Assembly (NCBI GenBank): GCA_030324005.1
Contig: JARDVH010000073.1
Span: forward strand, 31,919,317-31,983,316
Source: Negaprion brevirostris
Taxonomy: Eukaryota
Direction: 5' to 3'
DNA length: 64,000 nucleotides
Shown here: positions 2,681-63,781 of the stretch, piece after piece
How positions within the stretch are numbered: position 1 is the stretch's first letter
Layout of the letters: every line of letters starts with the position of its first letter
The notes under the pieces: generated by a model
Database searches by the model: none
What the model saw: the letters and a program-made list of their open reading frames with translations, nothing else
Told to the model about the DNA's origin: nothing
Made by a program: the position numbers and the translations under genes

Positions 2681-4029
2681 ATAGCCAGGCAGCGAGGTTT
2701 TGTTTAGTGGGAAAGGTATCACCCCTCAACCAAATGTTCATCACAATTTCATGCAGTTATCTAAGGGTCATCATGTAGATAAAAAGCTATAGATGAGTCA
2801 GGAATGAATAATTCCAGTTGTGTGGAGAGCAGAGAAAGTTAGGAGAAGATTTTGGAGAGATATTCCAAGGTTATGAGGTCATCAAAATGAATTATTGCAG
2901 ATAATGTTGCAGATCTGTACAAAGGGTTGTTGCAGATCTGTAGATCCTGTTCACCAAGTCACTTCAAGAAACAGAATAGGAGCTGATAGTGATTCACTTG
3001 GTTAAATCAGATCAAGCAGATGCAAACCTATAAACTGAAAAGACCATAAATCAGCTGCAAAAAAACTGACAATCAAAACAAGTACCACTGATAAATACCC
3101 GAGTAAAGGCAACGGCATCAAGACAATTGAAGAAGTTACATTATTTTATAAATTACATTGCATTTTAGAATTTATTAAAGACGGATGAAGGTGATTCTTT
3201 CACCCATTAATTTATTTGGCTGTAAACAATATATCCCACAAACTAAAGGACAGGATTCAATGAAACCTGATAGGACATGGCCCAAGGAAGAACTGATTAC
3301 TTTTTGGCCAAGATGCAGATCTGGATCCTGGAATTTTTATTTGACTGGAAAATAGGGTCAATTGATTTATTTTAAAAAGTTGTTGTTTTTTGATTTAGAA
3401 GGCTGTTGATAGCTTTAGAATGTTGTGGGTTGCCTCAGCTCCCATGGTGGAATTTATCACAGCTGTCAAAATGTGAGCAGAGTTTTCAGAGCAGGTTACT
3501 GGCCTTGAACCACCAGTAAAATAGAAACTCTTGATAATTTTTGTTTCAGTTTTGTAGTTAAAGCATCAGTCAAGCAGAGAAAAGCCTCAAGGAAAACATG
3601 TATTTGTAATAATATTTGAGTTAACACAGCATAGTGGAAATATGCTTAGAGTGCCCTCTTCACTTTTTAATGATGCAAGAGCACTTCATTCAATTTATAA
3701 AACTAAAGACGAATGGCTTCAAAGACATGAAGATATTTTATAACCCAAGCTGCAGCTATACAAAATAACCAATAGAATATTGGGTACGAGGTTGAATTGA
3801 AGTACACAATAATGCAGTTCCCAGTGATACATTTAAATTGTTTTTAAAAAAGATGTAAACTCTGGTGGTGTAATATTTATTTTCTGTGTGGCAAAGAGCA
3901 TAGCCCTGGAAAATTTTGATTTCTAAAACTTTTCAACACAATATTCAGCATTTTTGTGTGCTATAATTCAGCATAACAGCAACAGCCCAAACCATAACTG
4001 ATTAACTTTGTGCATTCAGGTGATACTCA

Positions 4030-4500
4030 GTGTATGGAACAACTTGTACTTACAGAGAACCACCAAAAGAAAATTCCAAGATGCATCACAGGAGCATTAT
4101 AAAACAAATTTTGAGACCAAGACACTAGACATGAGAGCATATGACCAGAAAGATCTGATCAAAAGCTAGGGTTTAAGGAGCCTCTTAAAGGAGAAAACAG
4201 TACTTAGGACCTTGGCAGTTGAAGGTACAGCCGGCAATGATGCAGCAATTAAAATCAGGAACGCTTAAGAAATCTCTTAAAGTTGTAGGACTGGATGAGG
4301 AAACAGAGGTTACATAAGGAGAGGATTTGAAATCAAGGATGAAAATGTTTAAAATCAAGGTACGCTTAAACCTATATTAGCAAACTTAGTGGTGATAGGT
4401 GAAGGAGACTTGGTGCAAGTGAAAACACAGGCAGCAGAGTTTTCAACAAACATATATTTATAGAATGCAGGAGATGGGAATCCATCCTGGAGTTCCAGAA
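4030..4500 (-). mobile_element. Probable L2-type LINE 3' fragment
   Basis: Resembles the common shark LINE 3' region ('aacaacttgtactta...caggagcattataaaacaaattttgagacc'); related degenerate copy at ~44270-45075. Family assignment tentative. Confidence 0.4.
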
Positions 4501-4924
4501 ATTGAAGAATGATCTGCAGGCCACTGTTCGTAGCAACCCAGGAAGCAAATACAGAGGCATCAAAAAATATTCACTTAACACTTCTATTTGTAACCAAAAT
4601 ATTAGAACTGGGGGCTGTCTGTCTGATGGTCAAGGAGTATCCAGTCAGGTAATGAAGTATTTGTTCACTTTCCAATGGCGGAAGGCATAGGGCCTCACAA
4701 ATAGACATGTTGGGCAACCAATGGGGCAAGTGGGGGATGGCAGAGCTATTAAAGGGAGAAGCACACATGAAGAAGCTTTCAGGAACATATCCGGCCAGAA
4801 TAGGCAATTCTAATGTATGGAGGTGCCATTGTCGATGATATAAATAATAATGATTTGTGGCTTATAGACAACAAAATAGAGGATGAAAGAAAATATATTC
4901 AAGTAAGCAAATTTTATTCCCAGA

Positions 4925-6205
4925 GTATCACTGCATTCACCGACCTGATCAAAGTATTTGACTCAGTAAATCACGAGGCTCTGTGGACTGAACTCCAAAG
5001 ACTTGGATATCTAAGCAACTTCATCACAATCCTGCAATTAGATCAAGATGATATAACTGCAACTGTCTGGAGTGGGAAATCTGAAAAAGACACCTTCAAA
5101 ATCCAGACCAGGGTAAAGAAAGGTTGTGTAATTGCCCCTATACCTTTAATGATCTAACTATTCACTCCACCAAAGATCAACTGCCCTCTAGTCTCTGTAT
5201 TAAATACCACATAGATGGAAAACTTTTTAATCTCAGCTTACCCCATGCCAAAATTAAACTGATCACAATAGATATACATGACCTACAGTTTTAGGATGAA
5301 TGCAGTACAGTTTCCATTGTACACCAGATTTGCAAACTAGTCCTCATTTCTCCAACTCTGTATATAAGAAACTTAGCCAGTCCTTCAACGTTGCCAAAAG
5401 AAAACCCATACATCAGCCCACTCAGGGTCCACCAAATATTCTAATGCCTATCTATGTTGAAGGAAGAATATGTTGAACATTTCCTGCATCTTGGAGCCAC
5501 CTCTCTGAAAAGGCTGCCAGTGACAAGGAGGTCAAACAATGGTCAGTTGCACCAGTTCAACCTTTTACAAACTAAGGTAACTGACAATAAAGATCTTGGC
5601 AAATTAACAAAAGTCTGAGTGTGTACAGCAGTTACTGCATTAAGACCTGAACTCTGCAGAGACAAACGAGCGCTAGCAAAATACCATCAGGAATGCCACA
5701 GCTGCATTCTCTGGACTCAGAGTGAACAACCACTAGTGTCCCTTTTGAAATCAGTGCTACTTGCATTTAGCCAAAACACCTACAAAATCAAATTCAATGG
5801 ACTGTACAGAGTTCAGGTGATCAAAAACTGTCTCAGAAGGCCTGTTCTCTCAGCTTTCAAATGGTTAATGCTCTAGGAAAGAAAATGTTTCAAAGACACT
5901 CTGACACTCTCCTTGAAGTGCAGCAGCGTTGATCTTAAGACTGGAAGGAGCTTGCTACCAATCATTTGACAACTCATCTATCAAAATGCATCATGCTTTG
6001 AGTCTCAATGTTTTAATGGTGAAGCTGAGCAGCAGCAAAGAAAAGGAAGCAAATCCTGCTTTCCAATTCCCATCATCTCACAGGCCACCATGCCCCCATG
6101 TGCGAGTCGAGAATTGGCCTGTTTAGTCACAAGAAGACCCACAACACAAACACATGACAATTAGAAGATATCCTCGTCAAATCAAGGAATAGCCAGTAAC
6201 AACCA
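4925..6205 (+). mobile_element. RTE-clade LINE, decayed RT plus C-terminus
   Basis: ORF 4813-5157 AFTDLIKVFDSVNHEALW...VKKGCVIAP matches the RTE RT pattern AFxDLxKAFDxV...VKQGCVxAP. C-terminal CESRIGLFSHKKTH near 6100-6142. Many stops and frameshifts. Confidence 0.8.
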
Positions 6206-6339
6206 GAAAGCAAAAATAATCTCATTGCACCTTAGCCATGCCAGCCATGGCTCAATTTGATCTATTTATAGAAGTACAAGTGAATCCCCTGTTAATATCT
6301 ATCACCTGAATACAATTTAAAATAATTAACATACCATCT

Positions 6340-6470
6340 AACCCTCGGCTGCGTTTTAGAGATCCCATGACATTATTTTGAAAAAGATCAGGAAAGTTAC
6401 CCCTGGTGTCTTGGACAATATTTAACCAATTACCACAAAACAATTATCTGGTCATATCATAATTTTGTCT
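6340..6470 (+). mobile_element. SacSINE1/DeuSINE fragment
   Basis: 'gatcccatgacattattttgaaaaagatcaggaaagttacccctggtgtcttggacaatattt' is similar to the reverse complement of the middle of the 22020-22510 element. Confidence 0.5.
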
Positions 6471-9400
6471 GTCACCATACCAGTTCTGAAGAAAATGCAC
6501 AGGAGAGAAATAAGATACAAGCCTCAAAAAGACTTCTGACTCTTAGAGATATACAAGATTCTTGAAGAAAAGGTAAACTGAAGCAATGCTTTGGACAAAC
6601 TGGTAAACCAGTGTGCGCCCATTTATTAGAAAGCTCCATATTTTACTTGGAATGTTAGCACTATCACTTCTGTAAACAATACCACACATTTCAACTCCAT
6701 TATTCATCACTATCTCCTCTTAAATAATGTAAAATCCATAGTTGACTCCATTACAGTTAAATGAAAAGCTTCATGATGTTAGAGTTGTTCTAACATTGAA
6801 GGACATTTCAATGCCCTTGAAATGTGTTGGCAACAACTTCAACATATAGGAAACACATCTTTCTGTGAAAGTAGTTCACATGAATTTGTAATAAGTGCAC
6901 CAAGAATAGAACATCCCTTTCAAACCCTGCATTGGATGTATTTAAAACTCAAGTTGTCTTGATCTTCAAAAATTTGAGTTGGCTCTTTCTGGCAGCTAAA
7001 TAGTTAGTTTGTGCCATTTTGCAAACCCAACTGCAGTTGTACAGATTTGACCTAGTGAATGTATGGTGTGTATCCACAGCTGCAAAGAATCTGTCAATTA
7101 GGACCACTCTGGTAGTTTAGGTTATGTTCTTAATTAAAGGTTGGATGTGTGCCTGGACACATCAGTATAAACGTGTTCCAACTTCAGAATAGATTTTGTT
7201 TCTATTAATGGAGATTTGGGGGATGGGAAATAATAAATGCACTTTGCTTTCAGTAATTATAGTAAGAGAAGGTAAAGAACCAAAATAGTAAGCAATATTG
7301 CTCTGACTATAGAAATGCTTGTCCAACACATGATGAGAAAATAATTTGTCCCAGGATTGGTACATGGTGCTTTAGATATGACAGCAAAACTGGGAAAGTA
7401 TTTGTCATGTTCAGAAGTAAATTGTGTTTAATGAAGTGTAAAAACAGAATTAACAATGGAGCACTTACACTGAGAGTAGTTGATCTTTTTCAGGATTTAT
7501 TTATTTATTTATACACAATTACTCAGTGTTGATCTGTATCTGTTGTGGAAGGAAACAGATGGTTCAGAGAAAACGTTTTCAGCACAAATGATTTATTGTG
7601 GCATAGCTAATAAAATTATAAATGCATCTCCTTAAATGATATGTGTCTATTTTAACTAGTTGGCAGGCATATTTTGTTTCACAAATCCATTTTTTGCATG
7701 CCTCCCCCTCTTTATATTAGTATCCACAAAGCCGTTCTGTCACCTGAAACACTTCACGTTACCTGCTAAATGAAATGCATGTAAATGCTGATTGGGAGAT
7801 GTCTGACATGTAATTAATTACCTTATCTCAAGGACATTGCTTACTATTTGACAATACTCACGTAGCTGTAAATCACAACCAGTCAGAATGGCAAATCATG
7901 TTGCCCAGATATATCAAAGTACCATTTTGGAGAACATTCAGGTAAATGTATAACGATTATCTTTGAATGTTGACTGATTTAAACTTGTGTTGTCAGCGAG
8001 GTATGAAGTGTTTCATTTAGATGTGACCTCAGGAGGGGGTGAAATTTTTCTTGACAGCAGTATATTAGTGGGAGTAGGCCAACCGACAGATAATCAAAAG
8101 TTCAGACTGTTGTGGGAGGCCATTACAATGGCTGCATTTAGGAATGGTGTATCCCTTGTTCCTCAGATGAGAGTTTTCCTACTGAGTCAAGCTGCTGTGA
8201 AGCAACAGTAATAGTGGAAAAAATGGTTACAGAAATCAGAAAAGAACATTCAACGAGTGTCCTTGGGAAAGTATTCCTCAATCAAAATCGGATGTGACCG
8301 CTCTACTTTTGCTAGTACCTTGGTCTAATCATCACCTTTCTCACATACTGTGACTTAGCACATGTCCTTGTCAATCAGACAGATGTATGTCTGTTTCCAT
8401 GGTTATATTGTTTAGCACATCACTGTCATTTTGACATTGCCTTTAATATCATATTATAATAGGTTCTGGCACATATTAGATGCACAAACAGTTGTTTCAG
8501 CATCTTAAATGTAAGCCTGATGTGGTTATAGTTCCTGTTCTACTTCGAGAAGAGAGACTTGAGGAGAGCTTTGATAGACATGTCCAAAGTCTTGAAGGGT
8601 TTCGATGGAATAAGTTGAGAAATTGTTAAAACAAAATACCTGGAATGCTAAGTGGGAAGAGAGAGTTTACCCTTAAAATAATAGCTGTCTTAAACCTTGG
8701 TCATCAGCACTTATACAAACCAGCAGATTCCAACATTCAGTGAATAGATTGAGTAGAAGGATGAAATTAATTCCAATACTTTCTAACAGTCTAAATTTTT
8801 ATAATGCCACAATTTTACAGCATTTTTGTGGCTTCAGTTGGGTGCCTATAGCTGTGAATTTTGTCTTGTTCATTTATTTGTAATTCGGGGAGATGCAGTA
8901 ACATCAAAATTGTTTACATTTTATTCATATTATTTATATATTTTACTGCTGTGTATTTTAAAGGAAATTGTCAATTTTAACTTTTGTATTTTCTCTTCAC
9001 CCTCAAGCAATTGAATGTTTTAATTGCAGAGAGAGGTTTTTGACATTCATTATTTTAGCTCAGCTGTAATCATTATGTTCTGATTCGTGAGCATTTTCTA
9101 TCTAAAGAAATAAATGCCTAACCCTTAAAAATATCCATCACCTGTGTTTCTTACAGCCATCTAATAATTGCAGTAGTTCCATGTTAAGTGGTTCATCAGT
9201 TGTTTGCGTTATCTGCTTGTTCAACAATCATCTCTTTTTCTTTCCTTTCATGGACTAGTTTACCACTCTAATGTGATGCTCCAATGAGCAACATACACTT
9301 TGTTCTCTTTATTTCTCTGTACAATGCAAAATTGTTGATGTATTTAACAATAAAGAATAGTTGAGACTTCCTCTTAGAGCTTTTATCCCATTTATTCATC

Positions 9401-9784
9401 ACTTTTACAGTTTAGCTTTTGTGTGAGCACACACTTTGTGCTTTTGGAGTTTTTTGCTCAGCACGTTCTTTGGAATTGATTGAATAGTCTGTACTTTAGC
9501 AGGGTTTTAAGCAAAGCTTTTTTTCCATTTGCTTATCATCTCTCTTGCTATCTTACAGGGACATTCCTGTGGACTTCAAGTACATTGCTGAGCCAAGTAT
9601 GCATTCCATGCCTGCAGTGACATTATCACCAAACGGTGAGTTTGTCTAATCATTCTGGCCATTACATCCCATTTCATTGGATGCTATGGTATATTTTTAA
9701 CAATATAGCTGATCACATTTATTTTGATGAAATGTCTTGAGGCATTTTGTAAGAGTGCAGTCAAACAAAATTTAACATTAATTG

Positions 9785-12720
9785 ATAGAATCATACAGCG
9801 TAGAAGAGGTCCTTTGGCTTATCAAGTCCACACTGACACATTAGAAACACCTGAATTCCCACCTAATCCCATCTGCCAGTAGTTGGCTCAAAGCCGTGAA
9901 TGTTATGATGTGCCAAAGGCTCATCCAGATACTTTTTAAAGGATATGAAGCAACCTGCCGCTGCAACCCCTCCCAGGCAGCGCATTCCAGACTGTAATCA
10001 CCCTCTGAATAAAAAGGTTTTTCCGTATATTCCCTCCTAAACCTCCTGCCCCTCACCTTGAACCTATGTCCCCTCGTGACTAACCCTTCAGTTAAGGGGA
10101 ACAGCTGTCCCTTATCCACTTAGTTTGTGTCTCTCATAATTTTGTACACCTCGATCAGTCGCCCTTCAGTCTTCTCTGCTCCAATGAAAACAACCTAAGC
10201 CTACGCAACCTCTCTTCATAACTTAAATGTTCCATCCCAGGCAGCATCATGGTGAATCTCCTCTGCACCCTCTCCAGTACAGTCACGTCCTTCCGATAAT
10301 GTGGCGACCAGAAATGCACACAGTACTCTAGATGAGGCCTCACCAAAGTTCTATACAACTCCAACATGACTTCCTGCTTTTGTAAACTATTCCTCAGTTG
10401 ATAAAGACAAGTTTCTTGTATGTCTTTTTCACCACCCTATTAACATGCCCTTCTACCAATGTCCTCTGGCCCCACCCACAGATTGTCCCCTTCCAGAGAT
10501 CTATGGACAAACATGCCAAGATTCCTTTGTTCCACAGAATTTCCTAGTGTCCAATCATTCGTTGAATGCTTTCTTGTCAAATTATTCTTTCCAAAATTTA
10601 TCACCTCACACGTTTCAGGGTTAAATTCTATCTGCCCATTTAATCTTTCCATCTACATCTCCTTGTGGGCCAAGACACTCCCCCTCAGTGTTAACTACCC
10701 GCTCAGTCTTTGTGTCATCCACAAAGATTCTGCCTCCCACATTGATGACAATGTCATTTATACAAATGACGAATAATATGGAGCCCAACACAGATCCCTG
10801 TGGTACGCAAGTGGACACCAGCTTCCAGTCACTAAAACAGCCTTCTGTCATCACCCTTTGTCTTCTACAACTGAGCCAATTTTTAATACACTTTATCAAA
10901 GGTCCCATATAGGAGACTTTACAAGTCACCTATGTGTGACCTTGTCAAAGACTTTGCTGAAATTCATGTAAACTACATTGACTGCACTGTCCTCATCTAC
11001 GCATCCCATCACCTCCTCAAAAAATTCAGTCAAATTTGTTCGACATGACCTCTGACGAAGCCAAGCTGACTGTCCCTGATCAAGTTTTGCCCCTTCAAGT
11101 GGAAATAAATGCTCTCCTTCAGAAGTTTCTCAAATAATTTCCCTACCACTGATGTGAGACTCACTGGTCTGTAGTTTCCTGGTTTATCTCTACAACCCTT
11201 CTCAAATAGTGGAACCACATTAGCTGTTCTCCTGTTGCCTGGCATCTCCCCCATGGCTAGAGAGGAATTGAAAATTTGGGTCTGAGCCCATGCAATCTCC
11301 TTCCTTGCCTCTCATAGCAGACTAGGGCATAATTCACCTGGACCTGGAGATTTACCCACTTCTAAGGCTGCCAATACATCCAATACTTGTCCTTCCCTAT
11401 GTCAGTTTGCTCAAGAAGCTCACAGTCTGTCTCCCTGAATTCGATATCATCATCCTCATTCTCTTGGATGAAGACAGATGTGAAGTATTCAACACTCTCT
11501 ACCAGTATCCTCTGGCTCCACCCACAGATTGCCCCCTTGGTGACAAATGGGCCCCACTCTTTCCCTGGTTATCCCCTTCCCATTGATGTACTTATAGAAT
11601 ATCTTGAGATTTTCCCTACTTTTACCAGCCAGAGCTTTCTCATATCCCCTCTTTGCGTTCCTAATTGTTTTCTGAAGCTTCACCTTGCATTTTCTATACC
11701 TCACTAATGCCCCCACTGATCTGCTCCCCTTGTACTTTTTAAAACCTTTTTCTTCCTTCACATTGTATCCTGAATATCTCTGGTCATCCATGGTTTTCTG
11801 GGCTTATTATTCCTACCTATCACCCTAGAGGGAACATGTTGGACTTGCATCCTCCCCATTTCCTTTTTGAATGCTGCCCGCCCGCCCCCCCCGCTCTTCT
11901 GCAGATTTTCCCATCCGTACTTATTCCCAATCTACCTTGGCAGATCCTGTCTTATTTTAGGAAAATCCACTCTCCCTCAATCCAGAACTTTTTGTTGCAG
12001 CATGTCTTATTTCCTTGTCCATAACACAGTTAAATTGTATCATGTTGCGATCACTATCACTAAAATGTTCCCCTACCACTACCTCAACCGCCTCTCCATC
12101 TTCATTCCCCAGAATGAGGTCCAGTACAGCTCCCTGCCTTGTTGAACCCTCCACATATTGATTTATAAGGTTCTCCTGTACCCATTTCAAGAAGTCTACT
12201 GTATCCAAGCCCTTAACACAATGTATATCCCAGTTAATGCAGGGAAAGTTGAAACACCTAATATAATAACCCTATTGTTATTGTTTTTACACATTGCCAC
12301 AAATTGAGCACATACTTGCTTCTCAATATCCCTCTGACTATCTGAGGGTCTTTAATAAACACGTAACAATGTGGCTGCCCTTATTTTACTTCTAAGCTCT
12401 ACCCACAAAGCTTCATTTGATGCCCCCGCCAAGGTATCTTCTCTCCTTACTGCAGTAACTGACTCCTGAACTAAAAATGCAATGTCTCCTTCCTCGTTTA
12501 CCTCCTCCCCTGTCTCACCTAAAGATTTTATATCCCGGAATGTTGAGTTGCCAATTGTGTCTTTCCTTCAACCATATTTCTGTGATGACTATTATATCAC
12601 ACTTCCACGTGTCAATTATCATCCTCAACTCATCCATTTTACCTGCATTACTCCTGACATTAAAGTATAGGCATCCAGCCAGGCCTTACTCCTTTGAAAC
12701 TTAATTTAGCTGCATTACCT
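9785..12720 (-). mobile_element. CR1 (HER1-like) LINE, ~2.9 kb ORF2 relic (endonuclease + RT + 3' tail)
   Basis: Minus-strand peptides QYVEGSTRQGAVLDLIL (EN), ANVVPLFEKG..PGNYRPVSLTSVVGK, VPQGSVLGSILFVICINDI, LYRTLVRPHLEYCVHFWSPH, TRGHRFKV; 3' tail at ~9785. Confidence 0.93.
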
Positions 12721-12840
12721 CTGACTTATTTGTTTTGCTGTATAATTTGTGCCCTTATTCTGCGAACAGTCTGAGTCCTGTCCCCAGGCAAATTAGTTCA
12801 CATTGAGGTCACGCAAGGAAGTACATTGCTTATTATAGTC

Positions 12841-13727
12841 CTAATGCATCTATGACTATGAGGCCAAATTCCCCTCCAATTTGATTTTCAAGTTGCAGAT
12901 GATGCCACTGTAGTGGGTCAGATCTCAAGCAATGATGAGGCAGAATAGAGGAAAGAGATAAAGAATCTGGTGAACTGGTGTGACAACAATAATCTTTCCC
13001 TCAATGTCAGCAAAATGAAGGAGATAGACATCGACTCGAGAAACACAGTTGCAGGAATGCCCTGTCTACATCAAAGGGGACAAGTTAGAAATGGTCAAAA
13101 GCTTCAAAGTTTTAGGTGTCCAGATTACCAACCATCTTTTCTGGTCTCTCCATGCAGACACTATAGTTAAGAAATCCCACCAATGCCTCTACTCCCTCAG
13201 GAGAATCAGAAAATTTGATATGTCCACTACAACTCTCACCAATTTCTACAGATGCACCATCGAAAGCATTCTTTCCAGTTGTATCATGGCTTGGTATGGC
13301 TTCTGCTCTATCCAACACCACCATAGACTACAAAGGGTTGTGAATGAAGTCCACTCCATCGCTTAAACCAACCTTCCACCCATTGATACCGTCTATACTT
13401 CCCGCTGTCTCAGAAAAGCAGCCAGCATAATAAAGGACTCAACACATCCCAAACATTCTCTCTTCCACCTTCTTCCATTGGGAAAAAGATACAAAAGTCT
13501 GAGGACATGTGCCAATTGACTCAAGAACAGTTTTTTCCCTGCTGCCAGACTTTTGAATGGACCTAACTTGCAACAAGTTGATCTTTCTCAACACCCTAGC
13601 TATGACTTAACACTACATTCTACACATTCTCCTTTCCTTATCTATGCACAGTACGCTTTGTCTGTATAGCATGCAAGAAACAATACTTTTTACCGTACAC
13701 TAATATACGTGACAATAATAAATCAAA
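12841..13727 (+). mobile_element. Rex1/Babar LINE, 5'-truncated
   Basis: WCDNNNLSLNVSKMKE and TLTNFYRCTIESILSSCIMAWYG are typical Rex1 RT C-terminal motifs; tail 'caataataaatcaaa'. Homologous to 38017-38955. Confidence 0.88.
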
Positions 13728-13769
13728 TGTATCAAACCACTATGAAGCCAAAAAGGAACAAAACCGGTC

Positions 13770-14760
13770 AGACCACTGTGGTCAACCTAAATACTGGAAA
13801 TAACATTGGCACACTGAGCCCTATTGATCCTGCAAAGCTGTCCTTATTAACATCTGGTGGCTTGTGCCAAAATTGGGAGTATTGTCATGGGTATTTAGAA
13901 AATCTTTACAACTGTACAATGTTCCAGACACCATCACCATCAACTCTGGATATGCTGTGTTCCATCAACAGGACTGACACAACAGCAGTGGCACAGTGGT
14001 ATACAGTTGGTACTCAACATCAACTCGGGACCCCATGAGGTCTCATGGCATCACTCAAAACTGGGCAACAAAGCATCCTGATAATTACTACATAATATAC
14101 CTTCCCCCCACACCCTGGGGTACTCCGACGTCTTTCTCCAAGAGTGGCTCAGTAGCACCACCAAAGACTGAGCTGGCTGAGTCCTAAAGAGATAGCTGCT
14201 ATACCTGGTCTTTGGCAGATGGTGTAGGAACCAACAAGAGGGTAAAAGCTACTTGTTGTTGTTCTCACAAATCAACCAGCCGCAGCTGTATCTGACCATG
14301 TCAGTAGTGATAGGAATGACCATTACACAAGCCTTGGGGAGACAAATTCCCATCTTCACATTAAGGAAACCCTTCACTGTGTTCTGTGGCACTATCACCT
14401 TGCTAAATGGGGTAAATTTTGAACAGGTCTAGCAACTCAAAACTGGGATATTTTGGGCATTGTGTGTCATCAACAGGAGAATTGTATACCACAATATGTA
14501 ACTTCATGACTCAGCATATACCACCACCCCCCCTCCCAGTCTAGAATTACCATCAAACAGTGGGATCAAACTTCATTCAATAAAGAGTTGCAGGAGTACA
14601 TGCAGCACAGTGGCAACAATGTGTACCATCCGCCAAGATTCATTGCAGCAACTCACTAAGGCTCCTTCAACAGCATTTTCCAAACCCATGCCCTCTACCA
14701 GTTAGGACAAGGGCAGCAGATGCACAGGAACACCACAAGCTACAAGCTCCCTGCCCAAGA
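13770..14760 (+). mobile_element. Internally deleted non-LTR retrotransposon (CR1/L2 group)
   Basis: EN-start-like 'aacatctggtggcttgtgccaaaattggg' and 3'-region 'aaggctccttcaacagc...ggacaagggcagcagatgcac'; related tail fragments at ~23395-23555 (+) and ~39855-39975 (-). Confidence 0.5.
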
Positions 14761-15746
14761 ATACTTAATCGAAGGCAGTGATTTAGATAGAGATCATGGC
14801 AGTTTTTTTAAACTGAAAACTGGTAAAATATTGGAAGCAGGGAAAGATATAGGGTTTTGTAGTAAGAGCAGGTTAGTGGAATTAGTTTTTTTTATTGCAG
14901 CAAAAAAGCCAGCACAAATTTTGTGTTGCAGACTACTGTGATTCAATGGGAAAGACTTTGGTACACATGCAAATTTCACTCACACTAAATTTCATATTTA
15001 ACAGCTCAGTATTGGATATATTGGACCAATTTTATTTTGTTGCGCATCAAGGCCCATGCAGGAACCACGATAAATTTCCCCATGTCTTTACATTAATGGT
15101 ATTTCATCATCCCCAGAAAATTCAGTCTGCTGCCTTGAAATTGCTGTTAAAAGGGGAAATAAGGTTAGAAATTTTAGCCAATGTAGTTGTAACTCTCCTT
15201 TCTGTGACTATTTGAAATTGGCAATCCTTCATGACCTGAGGGAAATAGCAAACACTTATATTTATTAAATTGCCTCTTGGCTTTTTGAGCTCCAATGGAA
15301 ATTGTTTAGGATATCAGGTTTTCCACACATCTGCAATTTTTGTCTTTGTGACTCTGTGGTAGATTCTATATCAATGCCCTGTCGATACTAATGAATCTGT
15401 AAATATGTCACTTGTCAATGGACATGAAATAGTTAAAGGTTAGTAATATATTAGGATCCAGGTATTTAAAAGTTATTTTAGCTTCACAGGCTGCCAGTTT
15501 ATTATTTTTGAATCGTGATGTCAATACAGCTTTTAACAAATACCATGCTGTTTGATTACTGTTAAATTTAGTTATGTTATATGCTAATCTGTGCCAGGAA
15601 CCAATGACACTGGTAACCCACTCAGTTGCCTTATGAATCCCACCATGTCATACACAATACTCACACTAATTCAAGAATGCTTACAAATTTACACACATCT
15701 TCAACATTTCATTTAGCCTTGAATCGTGCAGTATACAGCAGCAAAC

Positions 15747-15752
15747 TTTATT
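15747..15752 (-). terminator. Candidate distal polyadenylation signal AATAAA
   Basis: Minus strand ATTGTAAAAATTTGTAATAAAGTTTG with upstream UGUA motifs and downstream GU-rich 'ATGTGTGTAAATTTGT'. Confidence 0.55.
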
Positions 15753-15830
15753 ACAAATTTTTACAATGGGCAGTATTTTCCATGCCCTCCATGGCATGTT
15801 TCATGGTAGCAATGGCAGCCTACCGTTGGT

Positions 15831-15923
15831 GGCAGGATTTTCTGGTCCCTTTGCTGCAAACGAGGTTTCCTGTTCTATGCAGTGGCAGATCCTGCCAGTA
15901 AGAACAGCCAGAAAAGTCCGGCC
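15831..15923. mobile_element. Short MITE-like element
   Basis: Imperfect TIRs ggcaggattttctgg / ccagaaaagtccggcc. Confidence 0.5.
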
Positions 15924-15954
15924 TAAGTAACTTTGCCTCAAAGACCCAACAATC

Positions 15955-16055
15955 CTTTCTGATGAAAGATCACAGACTTGAAACTAACTCTTGTTCAACT
16001 TTCCAGAGGCTGCCAGGCCTGCTGAATATTTCCATCATTTTCTGTTCTTATTCCT
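15955..16055 (+). repeat. Penelope-derived repeat with degenerate hammerhead-like core
   Basis: CTGATGA(15959-65)-AAGATC-ACA-GACTT-GAAA(15980-83), followed by the family body 'gctgccaggcctgctgaatatttccatcattttctgtt'. Confidence 0.5.
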
Positions 16056-18120
16056 ATTTTAAAATATCTTTTATGGTCAATAAATAACATCAGTGATAAC
16101 CCATAAATGAGATACAGTAATTTCAGTTCCTCCAGTTTGATTAAAGAAATTTAGCTGTGTTTCAACTGCACTTCTTTCTGCTCTTGCTTTGGCATCTTGG
16201 TGAAAAGACTAAATGCAGATTTCACTCTTAGTTTTATTATAAAAATCAATTTTTCATTTGTTACAACTTAACTTGATAGAAACCAAAAGAGCTTTATACA
16301 AGGTGCTTTTTTTACTTTTTTTAAAAACACAGTTTAGACAAGTAAAGCACTTATTTTACATTTTCAGGATGTTATTAGGCAATTGGATAGGACTGACCAA
16401 ATGTTGGTCATTAATACAAACACATCCTTGCAAAGCATATTGGTATCAGGGATTGCTCCTGGTACACAACAAGGCTGTCAGCTTCTAACTGACAGCAGAA
16501 GGAAAATCAAAAGAAGAAAAAACGCAGAGGTTTACAATGAATGCATTCAGCAGCACCAGATCCTTCACTTCCAAACAAGGTCGTTTGCTTTAGACACACA
16601 CCGCTAGGGTGTTTTTTTGTAACAGAATTTGGCACACAAGAGTTCTATTATCACTCAGAAGTATCCCAGGTCAAATATACCAGACGTTCCTGGCATCATG
16701 TATACAGCAGCAGACAATTTAAAAATCCTCATGTACAAATCATCTTATGCATGCTTTGATCAAAGTGTTTTGTGAAAAATATTTTGACTTAATTAAATAA
16801 TTGAATACTGGAAACATCTTAAAGGGCTGCAACATGATTTAGATATCCTGGGCATGTCATTCAATCATTAGGACCATTACAAAGTATTCAATCTTTGCTA
16901 CAAAATGTAATCTTTTTATACAATGTAATATATAAAGGTGATATCTGTATTTTGCACAGTACCTTAACTGATAATTGAAAATTACATTTAAAATGGAAAA
17001 AATAAACTCATCTGGCCATCTATTAAAAAAATCTGAGATTGTCATTACCCTTATACTAATGTTTTATAGAAAAATAAAATGATGCATAAAGTAATACAAC
17101 TATACATGAAAGTACTGCAAGGATATATGGACAGGCTTTACAGATATCTAATACAAGGTTATTTTATAGCTTATAAATAGGTTATCTACACAATATGTGG
17201 TATAAAAATACACTCAGAACATTTGTGGGCACTGAAGTTAAAAGCTCATTGATGAATTTAAAAGATATCAAGGCATGTTTTATGCCCTTGGTCAAATAAA
17301 TTTTAAAAAGTCACCGGTGCTAATCCACCATTTCTCCCCATATTACTTTAAATGGTAATGATGATGATTATCACTCCAAAGAAGCTGAATCAAGGTGATT
17401 ACCCTTCAATCCTACCCCACCCTGACCATGCAGCAAGGGCACGGAATCGCTTCACAGCACATGGCACAAATTAGCTTTAAAAGCTGCAGAGTGGCTGACA
17501 CTGGCTTCACTGTGAAATTGTATACATTACTGGCACTGGCGTGACAAGAATCGCAGTACGTGACTCTACATGTGCTCTCCTTCAACTGAGCATTGCTGAA
17601 ACAGCTTTGTACAAAAATGCAAGAACAGATCCTCATGCTAGCTCTCCGTGAGTTGCTCTTCTCAATTCGTAACAGTGTTGTGCAACTGTCTTCCTCACGG
17701 TGGAAACGGAAGATAGTACAAGCATTTCTGTTTTCACTGTAGGATGCACTGTGATTCTCAATGGGCACTGAGTTGCAATCCATCCAGTATACTGTGCCCT
17801 GTTAATGTGTGTGCTAATTTTCTTCTATGTCTTCTTAGGTACAATTGCTTCCCTGGGTTAAGGCATTTTTGTTTGCATGTTGGAAAAAAAAGATTTTTTT
17901 GTTTGTACAAATTTTTACAATTCTCTTTTATGGCACAACCAGCAGATGCTGTTAGAAAATATATAAATATCCTCTCTTCTGTACAAATTGTTTGCAGCTC
18001 ATTTCCCTTCCCTCCCAATCTAATTTATTTGCACTGTACAAATCACAGCTCCCCTCTTTAGTGTTTCTTTTATGCAGTCTCTTCATATTAACAATTATTT
18101 ACAATAGGCAAAAGTGGTGT

Positions 18121-33878: not shown

Positions 33879-34406
33879 TTATTAAACTATTAATACATAC
33901 ATGGCTGTATTCTTCACCTGCAAATACAACACAAGAATAAGCAGCATTTCTCAAAAATCCAAAAGGAACGGATGCAATTTTTTAAAGTACTGTTTGAAGT
34001 AAAATGGGTTGCTCCCTAGAAAATTACCCCTTGGATTAGCCCTCAAGGTTAAATGAACGATAACAGTTTCTCCCTAGTTCCCAAGCATTTCCCAATAGCA
34101 CAATTAAGAAAGGCCTGTCTACTGAAATTTCCATGGAGAACTCAACACTGCTTCTTAGCAGCAACACGCGTTCCATTCAGTCCCGTTTATCCAGCATGGA
34201 AACATCAAGAACAAAAAAAATGGTCTTTTAAAAAAAATGTTGGATTGGCCATTAGAGTCTTTANNNNNNNNNNNNNNNNNNNNNNNNNNNNNNNNNNNNN
34301 NNNNNNNNNNNNNNNNNNNNNNNNNNNNNNNNNNNNNNNNNNNNNNNNNNNNNNNNNNNNNNNTTTTAAAAAAAATGTTGGATTGGCCATTAGAGTCTTT
34401 ACTCAC

Positions 34407-39580: not shown

Positions 39581-39765
39581 GTAAACACAGTAAGAAGTCT
39601 CACAACACCAGGTTAAAGTCCAACAGGTTTATTTGGTACAAAAGCCACTAGCCAATACTTTTGTTACCAAATAAGCCNNNNNNNNNNCTTCAGCCTGGTG
39701 TGGTGAGACTTCTTACTGTGTTTACCTTAGTCCAACACTGGCATCTCCACATCATAACAGTGCAT
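39581..39765. repeat. Penelope-type inverted pseudo-LTR relic (hairpin)
   Basis: gtaaacacagtaagaagtctcacaacaccaggttaaag (39581-618) is the reverse complement of cttcagcctggtgtggtgagacttcttactgtgtttac (39688-726), with 3 mismatches. Confidence 0.65.
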
Positions 39766-48000: not shown

Positions 48001-50416
48001 GTGGATGAAAGCACCTCGGTTGACTCATCCCCAATATCACTTTGCGGAAGCACCAAGCTCCAACCTGCATTGGCCAACAACATTTTTTTAAATATAGGAA
48101 ACCATATCTCAAGATTCTGACAATGCTTTAGGTACGTCAATGCATCATACCATTGGATTGCCTTACTTAAGGGAATTTCAAACATTTTAAAATTCTAATG
48201 GAGACAACTTTCAAGAACTATAAAAGGCTTGTAAATTTTCTCTGCAAGTTGCATAATTCAGAAAGCTGCAACTTTAATACAATATTAATTTGGGAAATTA
48301 TCATGCCCCCTCAAAAATAGAATGTCTAACCTAGCTGGGTACAGTCCAGAAGTCTATCCCACTGTAAATTTATTTTTCTAATAAGTACATCCAAAAGAAA
48401 ACCTTACATACACCAAGTTAGTTTCAAAGCAGCTCAACTACATTGGATCAAAATCAGTTTGACACTATTCAAGGTTTTGACTTCATGTATGCTTACAACT
48501 GCAGATTAATAGCATTACCTAGTTATACTTTACAGGAAGCATCAAGTAATGATTTTGGAAGAAAATTGGTGAAATTACACTTATATCAATTTCAGGTATT
48601 TAAAACATTGCTTATGGCAAATGCGTCCAAATATATTTAGATGTAGAAAAATGAGGCTTTCATGCTAGACGAAAGATGTCAGCAGCCGCAATCGTATCGT
48701 AGTTTACCAGCAGCAACCAACTGTGAATAATGACAAACCAGACTGCCAAGTTGCAGGCTGCTTTGCCCACTGTACACTGCCAGATAAACTGGGAACAAAA
48801 GCATCCTGCTGCACCTCCCGCTGCTCTCCATTAACCCCTGCTGCTGCTTATTATCTCCTCGGGGCCCCAGTACTACAGCAGCCATCTCCAATGCCATGCT
48901 TCTTAATGAATGTGTCTCTGCTGATGTAAACAGACTGCATCTGCACACCATCCACAGAATTGGTTACTAGGCAATCCAAAGGTCAAAGATAGGGGAATCT
49001 GCATTCACAGAAAAGTGCAGGGCTTTTTAAAAAAAAAGTCTGAAAGAATCTGGGCTAAACATAAAGGCCAGCTTGTAGTTGCTATACCTTCAAGTGTCTG
49101 ATGATATTAGATCTGGCAAAATAAAGACTTAACACAATCTGTCTGGGGATCTAAATCCACTACACATTATTTAGCACAAGAGGTGCTTTAAAACATTTTG
49201 AAAATTGCCATTAGCAGCACAATATTTTAGCCTTCTAACAAGCTGTCCACAAAATAGTGAAATGCAAATTTGCTCCCAACTTCCACTGGCCGAGCTGAGA
49301 TTAAGTGTGTGAACACAGGAAGGAAGAAATGATGGTAGGGAAACAGGACCGGGAGCCTAGATCTGGCCGGGATAAAAGACTACCAATTTATCTTGAGTAA
49401 GAGATGAAATTTTGTGAAAAAGCAAGAACATTTTGTTTTGAAAGATATATTTGAAATTATGTTGGAGGCTGGGATGCAGGGCAGGAAACTAATCTCTATT
49501 GTTGCCACATCAATGGAGGGTAATATAACAATGTGGTGACTACAACATGTTAATAATACACTCAGAGGACAGAAGACAATTGAATTATCTACATGCAGTC
49601 TGTCTAAACCTCTGGTAGAGGAATATATTGCAACAAAGCTTTGAGAAAACAAAGTGAGGTTTCAAGTTTCCATTATAGGTGCTTTAAAATGTTTCTGCAT
49701 TAGTGGCAGGAGTATGTTGCATGCAATTTATACACAACATTGTGGTCAAAAAGACAATATAAGCAGATTAAAATGATGTGAAAATATAGGAAAAGCAAGC
49801 AAACAGGATCACATCTTAATGCAAATTTTTAATCAGCATCTTACTAATGAACCAAACTTGAATGAGTTGAACTTTGTAGCAGTTCTGTACTAAAGATCAC
49901 TCCCCTCCTTTCCACACGTCGCAATAATCCTTCACCCACTTAAAGAAAGCTGGATATAATTGTTGAATTGTTAATCATGAAGTGTGATCTTTAAAGCTGT
50001 GATTGTAGACATATTTTTCTCATCAACTGAAGATATTCAGTTAAAACGCTTTTAACACTGATGCTTTTCCAGGAAGATTTTGTTTCACCAAATGTAAGAA
50101 ATCCGTCTAAAGCAAACTTACTTTGAACATAATTCCAACAGAAACTGCCAAGTTTTAAAAGCAAACAGCGTCTTTCTCCATCCCATAAGAGATGCAGTAT
50201 ATAAAAACATGACTTTGACCATTATGAATTCTGAGTCGTAATCACATTCCTTGCCATTATTATGTTCAAAATAAGGCATCTGGTCAGCAATGGTCTGTCA
50301 AGTTAAAATGATCACTTGAGGACACGACTTATTTTTTATTGCACCAGTGTGAGATAAAACACCATTTTCTCATTACAATCGACTTGTGAAAGCAGTGGTC
50401 TCCAACTATTTGGGCA

Positions 50417-50670
50417 TAAGAACATAAGAAATAGGAGCAGGAGTAGGCCATCTAGCCCTTCGAGCCTGCCCTGCCATTCAATAAGATCATGNNNNNNNNN
50501 NNNNNNNNNNNNNNNNNNNNNNNNNNNNNNNNNNNNNNNNNNNNNNNNNNNNNNNNNNNNNNNNNNNNNNNNNNNNNNNNNNNNNNNNNNNGCATCCCAT
50601 TCGCCTTCCTGACCACCTGCTGCACCTGCAGGCTGGGTTTTTGCGACTCATGCACAAGGACCCCGAGGAA
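50417..50670 (-). mobile_element. CR1 3' end fragment
   Basis: 'taagaacataagaaataggagcaggagtaggcc...ccattcaataag'; LGVLVHESQK..VQQVVRKANGM on minus. Confidence 0.85.
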
Positions 50671-52419: not shown

Positions 52420-52830
<411 letters not shown>

Positions 52831-56173: not shown

Positions 56174-56305
56174 CATCTTTGCACTTTGTCCCATCTTCTA
56201 GCAGCTGGACTCCAGTTGGGCAGGCACACTGGAAAAATGGTTTGATTGGAGACATCAGGCACAAGTGGGAACAACCGCCATTGTTGCTTCCACAGGGATT
56301 TGGAG
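56174..56305 (-). CDS. LRP6: LRP6 exon 5 (EGF 1)
   Basis: [43 protein letters not shown]; gtacag|CT ... ATG|gtaatt; 132 nt. Confidence 0.98.
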
Positions 56306-59505: not shown

Positions 59506-59700
59506 AACAGAAAATGCTGGAAAATCTCACCAGATTTGACTGCATCTGCAGTGAGAGAACACAGTTAATGTTTAGAGTCTGGATGACTACTTGACACATT
59601 AGCTCTGTTTTCTCACCACAGATGCAGTCAGATCCACTGAGATCACCCAGCATTTTCCGTTTTTGTTTTAGATCCCAACACTCGCAGCAATTTGATTTTA
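59506..59700. repeat. Palindromic Penelope-derived short repeat
   Basis: aacagaaaatgctgg/ccagcattttccgtt and tgactgcatctgcagtgagagaacacagttaatgt/acattagctctgttttctcaccacagatgcagtca are inverted pairs. Confidence 0.7.
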
Positions 59701-60169: not shown

Positions 60170-60523
60170 GTTTTAATTAGAATGGTTAGATTTCCAAATT
60201 ATCAACACAATATGAGAGATAATTAAGGGCTGTTGGCTTCAAAATTAAACATTTTAATAAAAAATCTTATTTCAATGACAACACTATTACAAAGCTTTTG
60301 CAATATATAGAGCACAAGCAAACATCAAATGCAATCAGCAAATTCTTCTTCTCGGATTATTCTATTCTCAACACATTTTAAAGGTTATGTGACACATATG
60401 CATTAAGCCAGATACTCTATCCTCATGTTTCCTATACTACAACAATGACTATATTTCAAAACTACTTCAACGGCTGTAAAGTAATTTAGGCCATCCAGAG
60501 TTCATCAAAGTGCTATATAAGAT

Positions 60524-60832
60524 GGCACGGTAGCGCAGTGGTTAGCACTGCTGCCTCACAGTACCAGGGACCCGGGTTCAATTCCGGCCTCGGGTCACTG
60601 TCCGTGTGGAGTTTGCATGTTCTCCCCGTGTCTGTGTGGGTTCCCTCCGGGTGCCCTGGTTTCCTCCCACATTCCAAAGATTTCCAGGTTAGGCTGACTG
60701 ACCATGCTAAACTAACTCTAGTGACGGGGGGTTAGCAGGGTAAACGAGGGTTATGGGAATAGGGTCTGGGTGGGATTGTGGTCAACACAGGCTTGATGGG
60801 CCGAATGGCCTCCAGTACTGTAGGGATTCTAT
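60524..60832 (+). mobile_element. HE1-type tRNA-derived V-SINE, full length
   Basis: A box TAGCGCAGTGG (60531-41), B box GGTTCAATTCC (60575-85), V-domain, CR1-like tail. Inserted at the end of a SacSINE-like 3' fragment (~60400-60520). Confidence 0.9.
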
Positions 60833-60880
60833 AAATGTAACTCTGTTTCTTGACCACTAAAACGCCTTCTCAATTATCCA

Positions 60881-61131
60881 CAATGACCTAAGCCGGGAAT
60901 CAACCACAGGTCCCTGGCACTGTGCGGCAGCAGTGCTAGCCACTGTACCACAGTGCCACCCTTGTTCTCTTGTATCATCATGCTGAGACACAAAGGAGGC
61001 TCCAATCTTTGTCTTATTGTCACTACAAGCTGCACCTTTCAAGGCTGCCATGAAATTCTCTACAGAGCTTCTTAATGGCATAAAGGAGTTGATGACTTTG
61101 CCAAGCAAAATATATCCTCCAAATACCAGAG
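60881..61131. repeat. Inverted duplication, arm A (pairs with 62677-62927)
   Basis: 251 bp, 14 mismatches and no indels against the reverse complement of 62677-62927 (manual alignment). Confidence 0.95.
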
Positions 61132-61408
61132 AAGTCCACAAGGGCTGTTGGGGTTCTTGGAGTCATTTAACAAGTTATAGGCACAATTTAACTGCATATG
61201 CAATAAATGGAGAGACAGACATCAGTATTGTACCACAAAATGCAGAACACATTGTCGCTTTATGGCCACAGAGTTTATTTGGTGAGTAAACTCAAGCTTT
61301 GATCAATTAAAAGATTTAATTGCTTGGCTTGTGGATTTGAAAATACTCATTAAACAATGAATAAACATATTCAGGTATATCAACTTAAGACAGAATACAC
61401 AATCTTAC

Positions 61409-61605
61409 CATTGGGTTGTCTCTGCTGGTTAAAGACATGAATGTCCATGGGGGAGAAAATGTTGCTGTGCACCTCCCGGCGAAACTCTCCAGTGTACTTA
61501 TTGCATGCATGAATAGAATGAGTGTTCCAGTCTGTCCAATATAAGGTGTCTCCAAACAATGTCAAAGCGAACGGATGTGGAAGTGAGCCTTCAACCACCA
61601 CTTGC
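61409..61605 (-). CDS. LRP6: LRP6 exon 4 (end of propeller 1)
   Basis: [39 protein letters not shown]...QRQPN; tttcag|GC ... ATG|gtaaga; 197 nt. Confidence 0.98.
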
Positions 61606-62289
61606 CTGAAAAAAACAAGATTCAGGTTAAACGAAAAATACAATACCTCTATCTTTTAAACTAAACTATACCGAGAACGTAATAAGTATCTTCCAACCAA
61701 TGCTGGCTGAAAACATAATTTGCATACCAGCATTTAAAAGTTTTGCGCTACAATTAAATGTCTAGCAACTTCAAAGTATAAAGACTAATAGTACATAAAA
61801 ACAACTTCTGTGCCAAAAAACTAAAAGCTTTTTCACAGCCATGTGTCCTCCTAATAGTAATACAAGATTGTGAGCTCTGATACCACGATCCAAAGTTGAC
61901 TGGAACAGAAAGCCAGTAGGTATTTTTTTCTTTCAGCTGGAATATGTCCTGTGGTACCATGAAGATTGAAAGAATTACCTTTTTTAGGCACAAATGTTGC
62001 ACATGAAGTCAATGTATTCATCATGTTGGTGCACTGATACACTGATGCTTTTACAATGACTGTAGTGCAGTAGTGAGTGATGCGTCACTTTGGATATCAT
62101 AATATAGTTCCAAAAATATTCTGGAATAATAACATCCCACTTTCTTTATAGCAGCATAACCTTTTCAATCATTGACTTTTTTGGTATAATTTATAAACTA
62201 AAGAAAGTTTACAGTTGATTTTTACAATTTAACAGATAATTCTGAACACAGACGCTTTGGCAGCTTATTCTGTTTTCTTTCAAAAACAA

Positions 62290-62847
62290 TTATTCAGAAC
62301 ATTGTGAATGGATTTGGACTTCATCACTCTCACTGATGAGTTGGCACAGGATAATGGTGATGTTCTGTGTTGCTCCTGGTGTTGTATGTTGTATCAATTG
62401 TTGTGATATTGCTGAATTTGGACCGCTTGTTGATGTTGCTGATGACCGTTCTTGGTTTACCAGCTCTGGTGCAGGTTGATTGGTTCTGATCTACTTACTG
62501 GTTTCTGTCTCCATTGCGTATGAACTTGGGTCTCAGTTTCAGCAACAATTTTTGCTGGCTTTCAAGATTGGATCCTGTACATGCAAAGGCTGTCCTCTCA
62601 ACTTGGGCAGGCCTTTGGCATGCTTGTTGAAGTGCTGAGTTCCCTCCACCTGTGAATTAGTGCTGTCTTACTTTTCCTCTGGTATTTGGAGGATATATCT
62701 TGCTTGGCAAAGTCATCAACTCCTTTGTGCCATTAAGAAGCTCTGTAGAGCATTTCATGGCAGCCTTGAAAGGTGCAGCTTGTATTGACAATAAGACAAA
62801 GTTTGGAGCCTCCTTCGTGTCTCAGCATAATGATACAAGAGAACAAG
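62290..62847 (-). mobile_element. Gypsy-type LTR retrotransposon integrase C-terminal relic
   Basis: Minus-strand peptides like LLSIQAAPFKAAMKCSTELLNGTK..TLPSKIYPP (cf. LLxYRxTP...SPAELLxGR...T.LP) and FNKHAKGLPKL..QPLHVQDP..SYAMETET; decayed. Confidence 0.6.
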
Positions 62848-62927
62848 TATGGTACTGTGGTACAGTGGCTAGCACTGCTGCCTCACAGTGCCAGGGACCT
62901 ATGGTCGATTCCCGGCTTGGGTCATTG
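62677..62927. repeat. Inverted duplication, arm B (probable donor copy)
   Basis: See arm A; spans the Gypsy-relic/SINE junction. Confidence 0.95.
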
Positions 62928-63092
62928 CCTGTGTGGAGTCTGCACGTTCTCTCTGTGTCTGTGTGGGTTTCCTCCGAGTGCTCCGGCTTCCTCCCACAGT
63001 CAGAAGGCCATGCTAAATTCTCCTTCAGTCTATTTGAAAAGGTGCTGGAGTGTGGTAACTAGGGGATTTTCACAGTAACTTCATTACAGTGT
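62848..63092 (+). mobile_element. V-SINE with HE1-like head and an alternative 3' tail
   Basis: Head and V-domain like 60524-60670; tail 'ggagtgtggtaactaggggattttcacagtaacttcattacagtgt' differs from the other copies. Confidence 0.8.
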
Positions 63093-63704: not shown

Positions 63705-63781
63705 TCTTATTGAATGGCGGGACAGGCTCGAAGGGCTAGATGGCCTACTCCTGCTCCTATTTCTTATGTTCTTATGTTCTA
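63705..63781 (+). mobile_element. CR1 3' tail
   Basis: 'cttattgaatggcgggacaggctcgaagggctagatggcctactcctgctcctatttcttatgttcttatg', near-exact reverse complement of 50417-50485. Confidence 0.85.

Follow-up and report, generated by a model that had tools for sequence, protein, structure and literature searches.

The 64,000-nt window analysed here, the whole stretch taken from contig JARDVH010000073.1 of Negaprion brevirostris (organism A, the source genome), carries exons of LRP6 on its minus strand. Exons 2 to 15, located with known exon lengths as a guide, joined into a single reading frame without a stop codon. Exon 4 (61409-61605, minus strand) has a length of 197 nt, AG/GT ends and a peptide that forms the end of the first YWTD propeller. 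This peptide matched propeller 1 of LRP6 best, with 142.6 bits compared with 73 for LRP4. LRP5 was absent from the exon 4 peptide matches, and the gene is taken to be LRP6 rather than LRP5 from its tail sequence. On crude scores across 14 exons, the exon 4 acceptor, with 14 pyrimidines in the 18 upstream positions, was tied for best, while the donor matched the consensus at 7 of 9 positions (tied second) and had a middling U1 energy (tied seventh).

The earlier note had claimed that skipping of exon 4 shifts the frame, and this was found to be correct. Joining exon 3 to exon 5 (56174-56305, minus strand, 132 nt), which is then read out of frame, gave 46 foreign residues followed by a stop within the first 10 nt of exon 6. 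With this stop lying far upstream of the later junctions, the exon-4-skipped mRNA is a predicted target of nonsense-mediated decay (NMD). Within exon 6, the TGG codon at 52777-52779 (minus strand) yields RTDWRR at the start of propeller 2, at a residue that is L in LRP6 of other vertebrates and I in LRP4; it represents either a real substitution or an assembly error.

Exon 4 is bracketed by two arms, 60881-61131 in intron 4 and 62677-62927 in intron 3, which are reverse complements over 251 nt with 14 mismatches and no gaps. Among the off-diagonal inverted matches in the window, the pair ranked first (E 9e-109). The left arm lies 277 nt and the right arm 1,071 nt from the exon, and the loop between them measures 1,545 nt. 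In the pre-mRNA sense, the mismatches comprised six G-U, three A-C and five purine-purine oppositions. The layout that the earlier note had described, from the length and spacing of the arms to the lack of indels, was therefore reproduced throughout, and its counts of G-U and A-C pairs in the LRP6 sense agreed with the mismatch list.

The right arm (minus strand) straddles the border of two repeats, one continuing inwards and the other outwards. The inner repeat is a decayed relic of the integrase region of an LTR retrotransposon, probably of the Gypsy type (62308-62848, minus strand, limits approximate), and the outer is a high-copy SINE (62849-63006, plus strand, perhaps extending somewhat further right) that has its head inside the arm and gave 3,389 candidates in the first genome search. 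The left arm (plus strand) is made up of the SINE head (60881-60960) and the integrase-like relic (60961-61131), with the same relic/SINE junction as in the right arm. Among 40 scored genome matches (all genome copy counts being lower bounds), only these two arms covered the full 251 nt, and the remaining 38 spanned the SINE head only. This uniqueness and the shared junction bear out the proposal of a single duplication event.

Elsewhere in the genome, the non-SINE portion of the arms had only old relatives, 65 to 80% identical. The label "Gypsy-integrase relic" in the earlier note drew weak support from these paralogous loci. In one of ten of them, a weak rve (integrase) hit lies just upstream of the relic match, with faint RNase H hits upstream of it in turn, which is the Gypsy-type order. 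The rve hit came from one of 15 open frames searched against Pfam (E 8e-5, under the cut-off), 13 of which had no Pfam hit. The relic piece of the window itself likewise gave no hit in Pfam, nor did one paralog frame in a PDB search.

Contigs of four related organisms (B, C, E and F), which reveal presence and junctions, were compared over 60760-62915, a range that ends 12 nt short of the donor's outer end. The right arm was present in all four, up to 62883-62897. Organism B carries both arms, and its contigs cross both left-arm junctions: one crosses the outer left junction, and another runs from the interior of the left arm through the exon to the right arm. Organism C yielded two arm-like contigs at single-copy depth, with the left-arm junctions outside contig coverage, and the left arm is probably present there. 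In E and F, two of the four relatives, 60881 is joined directly to 61132, leaving a clean empty site and a net insertion of 250 nt. Because both arms occur in B and probably in C, and the site is empty in E and F, the insertion is real and lineage-specific, as the earlier note had supposed. Its direction follows from the repeats: both the relic and the SINE continue beyond the right arm and end abruptly at the left, which makes the left arm, in intron 4, a copy of the right arm, the donor in intron 3. The poly-U tract before exon 4, at 61611, also has an extra U in A, B and C relative to E and F; it shares this distribution with the left arm, as do many other changes.

Several other origins of the pair were considered. 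The assembly is gappy, with 1,308 N in the window, and an artefact might have been suspected; the contigs of organism B that cross both left-arm junctions refute mis-assembly. Two independent insertions, or the ends of a transposon, would have to accommodate a relic/SINE junction common to both arms, the restriction of full copies to these two and an enclosed exon older than the left arm. The probability of all such accounts together is practically negligible. Terminal inverted repeats or a MITE in particular were rejected on the grounds that the right arm and the exon predate the left arm and that there are no other full copies, and retroposition because the copy lacks a poly(A) and crosses an intronic relic/SINE junction. 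A precise deletion in E and F was also rejected in favour of insertion, as it would require breakpoints no more than 2 nt from either end of the duplicated stretch; this polarity is read from the four relatives. Absolute dating was set aside. The mutation rate of 7e-10 per generation in the epaulette shark (PMC10587355) gives at least 2e7 generations even at the upper limit, which is too rough a figure and comes from another species, and only relative dating was retained.

The left target flank (60869-60883, plus strand) has CAA at 60881-60883 in common with the donor, a 3-nt microhomology that is weak evidence for a repair origin when taken alone. At the right target flank (61132-61146, plus strand), 0 to 2 nt (AA) are duplicated, and the target shows neither a deletion nor a poly(A). 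The empty site also contains an 8-nt tandem repeat, a plausible slip site. In the repair-mediated duplications (RDs) of Pace et al. (2009), a single donor lies within 5 kb (mean, 1.2 kb), lengths are 50 to 619 bp, microhomologies are 2 to 9 nt, poly(A) is absent and outgroups have the empty site; they occur across vertebrates, with 824 in human (PMC2671141). The LRP6 insertion resembles these in every such feature: it exceeds 50 bp and, at 250 nt, stays below about 620 bp; it has exactly one other full copy among the 40 scored matches, serving as a single donor 1,545 nt away (more than 50 bp and within 5 kb); and it combines a 3-nt junction microhomology, without a poly(A/T) tail, with an empty orthologous site in the outgroups. 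It differs in setting, since the screen of Pace et al. addressed insertions inside annotated transposons and included no shark. The passages of that paper considered here name one case in opposite orientation (ACSBG2) and do not treat pre-mRNA pairing across an exon, and its main text lacks the word "inverted" (PMC2671141).

Break repair or a template switch is therefore the likely source of the left arm. A free 3' end at the insertion site would have annealed through about 3 nt to an opposite-strand template 1.5 kb away, copied about 250 nt and then returned to the target without loss. The junctions fit synthesis-dependent strand annealing (SDSA), a replication template switch and polymerase-theta joining alike. 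The origin belongs to a described class of mutation, just as the possible effect on splicing belongs to a described mechanism.

The frequency of such pairs was estimated from 1,345,911 called bases, consisting of the LRP6 block and six arbitrarily placed 200-kb blocks, in which inverted pairs of at least 80 bp, at least 85% alike and 50 to 10,000 nt apart were collected. Sixteen pairs were obtained: the LRP6 exon-4 pair, seven high-copy repeats and eight low-copy pairs. Four of the low-copy pairs were checked genome-wide, and all four proved to be local two-copy duplications of 116 to 230 bp, 86 to 98% alike, one having a third, weak partial match. Three of these four were located at C42:50147959-50148822 (159 bp, 98%), C42:50044532-50052106 (230 bp, 92%, 7.1 kb apart) and C59:50190708-50191727 (116 bp, 89%), and the fourth in LRP6 intron 2. 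The resulting rate was 3.0 per Mb (95% confidence interval [CI], 0.8 to 7.6), or roughly 7,000 (1,900 to 18,000) genome-wide. By estimate rather than by count, such pairs bracket some hundreds of exons. The exon-4 pair was the top-scoring of the 16 in 1.35 Mb and the only one with at least 200 bp, at least 90% identity and a spacing within 5 kb. It stands at the strong end of a common class and, with its empty sites, a clean and relatively dated example of it.

Two of the 15 other pairs, those screened for enclosed exons, lie in LRP6 intron 2. One, the fourth of the checked pairs, at C73:32019999-32020741 (L031:7000-7742), is a unique inverted duplication of 177 to 183 bp, 86% alike and 384 nt apart, with two genome copies and no exon between them. 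The other, L034:334-445 and 1225-1336, is a 112-bp inverted pair, 98% alike and 779 nt apart; one of its arms touches an N gap, and it may be young or an assembly artefact.

As the insertion postdates the separation of A's lineage from E and F, the divergence that neutral decay could have produced between the arms has a ceiling at about the A-E or A-F divergence. The arms differ from each other at 14/251 positions (5.6%; 95% CI, 3.1 to 9.2%). The surrounding DNA differs from organism E at 69/1,230 positions (5.6%; P 1.0 against the arm divergence) and from organism F at 96/1,553 (6.2%, in a stretch that includes the exon; P 0.89). The arm divergence is therefore the most that neutral decay allows. 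Compared with organism B, the arms differed at 9/370 positions (2.4%) and the intron at about 36/1,444 (2.5%; P 1.0). Compared with organism C, the values were 12/280 (4.3%) and 17/961 (1.8%), with an uncorrected P of 0.022 and possible contig misplacement. Covariation was assessed on 40 of 167 difference rows, and at low power no retention of pairing above the neutral rate with compensatory changes was found. This rate test is a weak one, in that a duplex of this length could lose pairs neutrally and still work.

Comparison with the relatives, ten relic paralogs and 100 SINE copies allowed 13 of the 14 mismatches to be polarised with varying certainty, six having arisen in the left arm and seven in the right. 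At least two postdate the A/B split on the A branch, namely, 61006 (A-A) and 62816 (a wobble). At 60998 (partner, 62810), a compensating change or gene conversion is possible, and a reversion in C requires equally few steps. The earlier note had also seen meaning in the G-U and A-C pattern, which did not hold up: the 6:3 split of the nine transitions is what chance gives (P 0.25).

These data bear on the suggestion that the pair is a selected regulatory switch with maintained pairing, gated, for example, by ADAR editing. The arm is fixed in at least two and probably three organisms, the arms of A have remained free of indels and the one ambiguous site, 60998, could be read as compensatory. Against this, the arms change at the intron rate relative to B and faster than the intron relative to C, pair-breaking changes are still being fixed and a G-U bias is absent. 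A maintained switch is accordingly very improbable. The 13-nt zip-2 match, by comparison, has been kept in five nematodes (PMC8330042), whereas the LRP6 pair is not conserved above the intron rate. Because the arms drift apart as fast as ordinary intron DNA, the pair is likely to be an old scar of a common kind that has little effect, and not a splicing switch under selection.

The RNA consequences were examined by folding. The arm duplex has a predicted energy of -470.5 kcal/mol, with helix runs of up to 50 bp, compared with -518.4 kcal/mol for a perfect copy, the state at birth. The best competing partner tested, an older SINE in intron 4 (60522-60832, plus strand) in opposite orientation to the SINE head of the left arm, reached -134 kcal/mol and is a weak competitor. 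A long duplex around exon 4, as proposed in the earlier note, is thus predicted, and it overlaps neither splice site. The exon accordingly has reverse-complementary arms in both flanking introns and a stable predicted duplex between them, the arrangement associated with loop-out and circle formation. Intronic duplexes edited by ADAR are typically near-perfect over more than 100 bp, with arms no more than a few kb apart. The LRP6 arms are of this kind, with 243/251 positions able to pair when G-U is included. The duplex would form in nascent RNA and would likely be edited by ADAR, in the intron only, and the arms would bring skipped (NMD) or circular RNA to no more than a few per cent.

The reading favoured here, with a probability of about 70%, takes the left arm for an inverted copy of part of intron 3, likely made through break repair or a template switch. 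On this reading the pair, although predicted to enclose exon 4 in a fold, probably alters splicing little and probably decays free of selection. The possibility of a larger effect on splicing has nevertheless to be weighed, because the layout matches that of a mouse allele which skips its exon heavily. This allele, Tbxt insRCS2, arose when 220 bp of intron 6 entered intron 5 in reverse orientation at a CRISPR target site (Xia et al. 2024; PMC10901737). Exon-6-skipped RNA exceeds the full-length form in this allele, and tails are about 10% shorter (PMC10901737). The two cases have in common that a piece of the neighbouring intron, inserted reversed, brackets one exon. They differ in that the insRCS2 arms are 100% complementary and skipping was demonstrated (PMC10901737), whereas the LRP6 pair is an old, natural and fixed one with 94% identity between its arms, loss of its exon from the mRNA would disrupt the frame and any splicing effect is putative. 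The LRP6 arms are also more alike than the hominoid TBXT AluY-AluSx1 pair, which is identical at 228/297 positions (PMC10901737).

Inverted Alus provide a second point of comparison. As in Alu loop-outs and in circles formed by reverse-complementary matches, the LRP6 exon is flanked by introns that carry inverted sequences within roughly 1 kb of it (PMC13019027, PMC13019944, PMC8330042). The LRP6 pair is, in contrast, unique, each arm having one dedicated partner, whereas Alus are interchangeable SINEs. Deletion of an Alu reduced skipping in seven of eight chosen reporters, by about 1 to more than 40 PSI points (PMC13019944).

From these precedents, the duplex could loop out exon 4 and lower the LRP6 dose through frameshift and NMD in the arm-bearing clade, the reduction being tolerated or buffered rather than tuned. 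The geometry is close to that of insRCS2 (220 bp, about 950 nt apart; PMC10901737), the duplex was perfect at birth and has since lost only the difference between -518 and -470.5 kcal/mol as predicted, and the stop early in exon 6 lies well ahead of the later junctions. The splice sites of exon 4 are good, however. In human, Alu pairs of both orientations, 232,493 in all, lie around 23,540 constitutive exons, and folding energy is nearly alike for skippable and constitutive exons (PMC13019027). Dosage is a further obstacle. Human LRP6 is haploinsufficient, and heterozygous frame-shifting alleles, one of them an exon-8 skip, lead to severe tooth loss (PMC9504909). Given this dosage sensitivity in people, a heavily skipping allele would rarely be fixed or last, and any surviving effect is likely to be small. 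Such lowering of the dose is considered unlikely, though it deserves to be kept in view. Slightly more doubtful again is the fuller version of the same idea, in which the pair is a natural, fixed counterpart of insRCS2: in one clade, a single repair event would have created a perfect 250-bp hairpin around this frame-shifting exon and, through skipping and NMD, reduced the dose of the Wnt co-receptor, with the empty site kept in sister species.

A circular product was also considered, in which the main outcome would be edited intronic RNA together with small amounts of a 197-nt circle of exon 4, and the linear mRNA would show no measurable change. A length of 197 nt is short for a single-exon circle, and the circle has no endless reading frame and bears no other mark of usefulness. 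The long near-perfect duplex that is predicted speaks for it, as does the finding in worms that reverse-complementary matches favour the formation of circles and of skipped RNA alike (PMC8330042). On balance, a circle as the main product is improbable. The inversion of exon 4 by recombination between the arms, raised in the earlier note, is unlikely to matter because the longest identical run between them is only 33 nt; its product would be a null allele.

Among the papers listed in literature searches, none was on this locus or on skipping of LRP6 exon 4. The locus nevertheless provides a natural experiment, with the same exon occurring with the hairpin in A, B and probably C and without it in E and F, and with no core splice-site change among the differences listed. 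With so strong a predicted duplex in an essential, dosage-sensitive gene, and with empty-site relatives as a ready natural control, it stands slightly above an ordinary case. If skipping occurs, lineage-specific splicing would have repair patches as a source besides Alu pairs, here in a gene linked to human tooth number. If the counterpart of insRCS2 outlined above were real, the thousands of unique inverted repair patches in this genome would constitute a transposon-independent source of lineage-specific exon skipping.

Other inverted or repeated sequences were observed in the window. Two repeat ends in opposite orientation, 50415-50486 and 63705-63776, are 97% alike over 72 nt and each meet a 100-N gap; these gaps may conceal a young inverted repeat pair around exons 4 to 7. 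Beside exon 8, identical 38-mers at 34226-34263 and 34364-34401 flank a 100-N gap and likely represent an unmerged contig overlap. Two small MITE-like fold-back elements were located at 39581-39725, with 38-nt arms at 92% identity, and at 59506-59661, with 73-nt arms at 78%.
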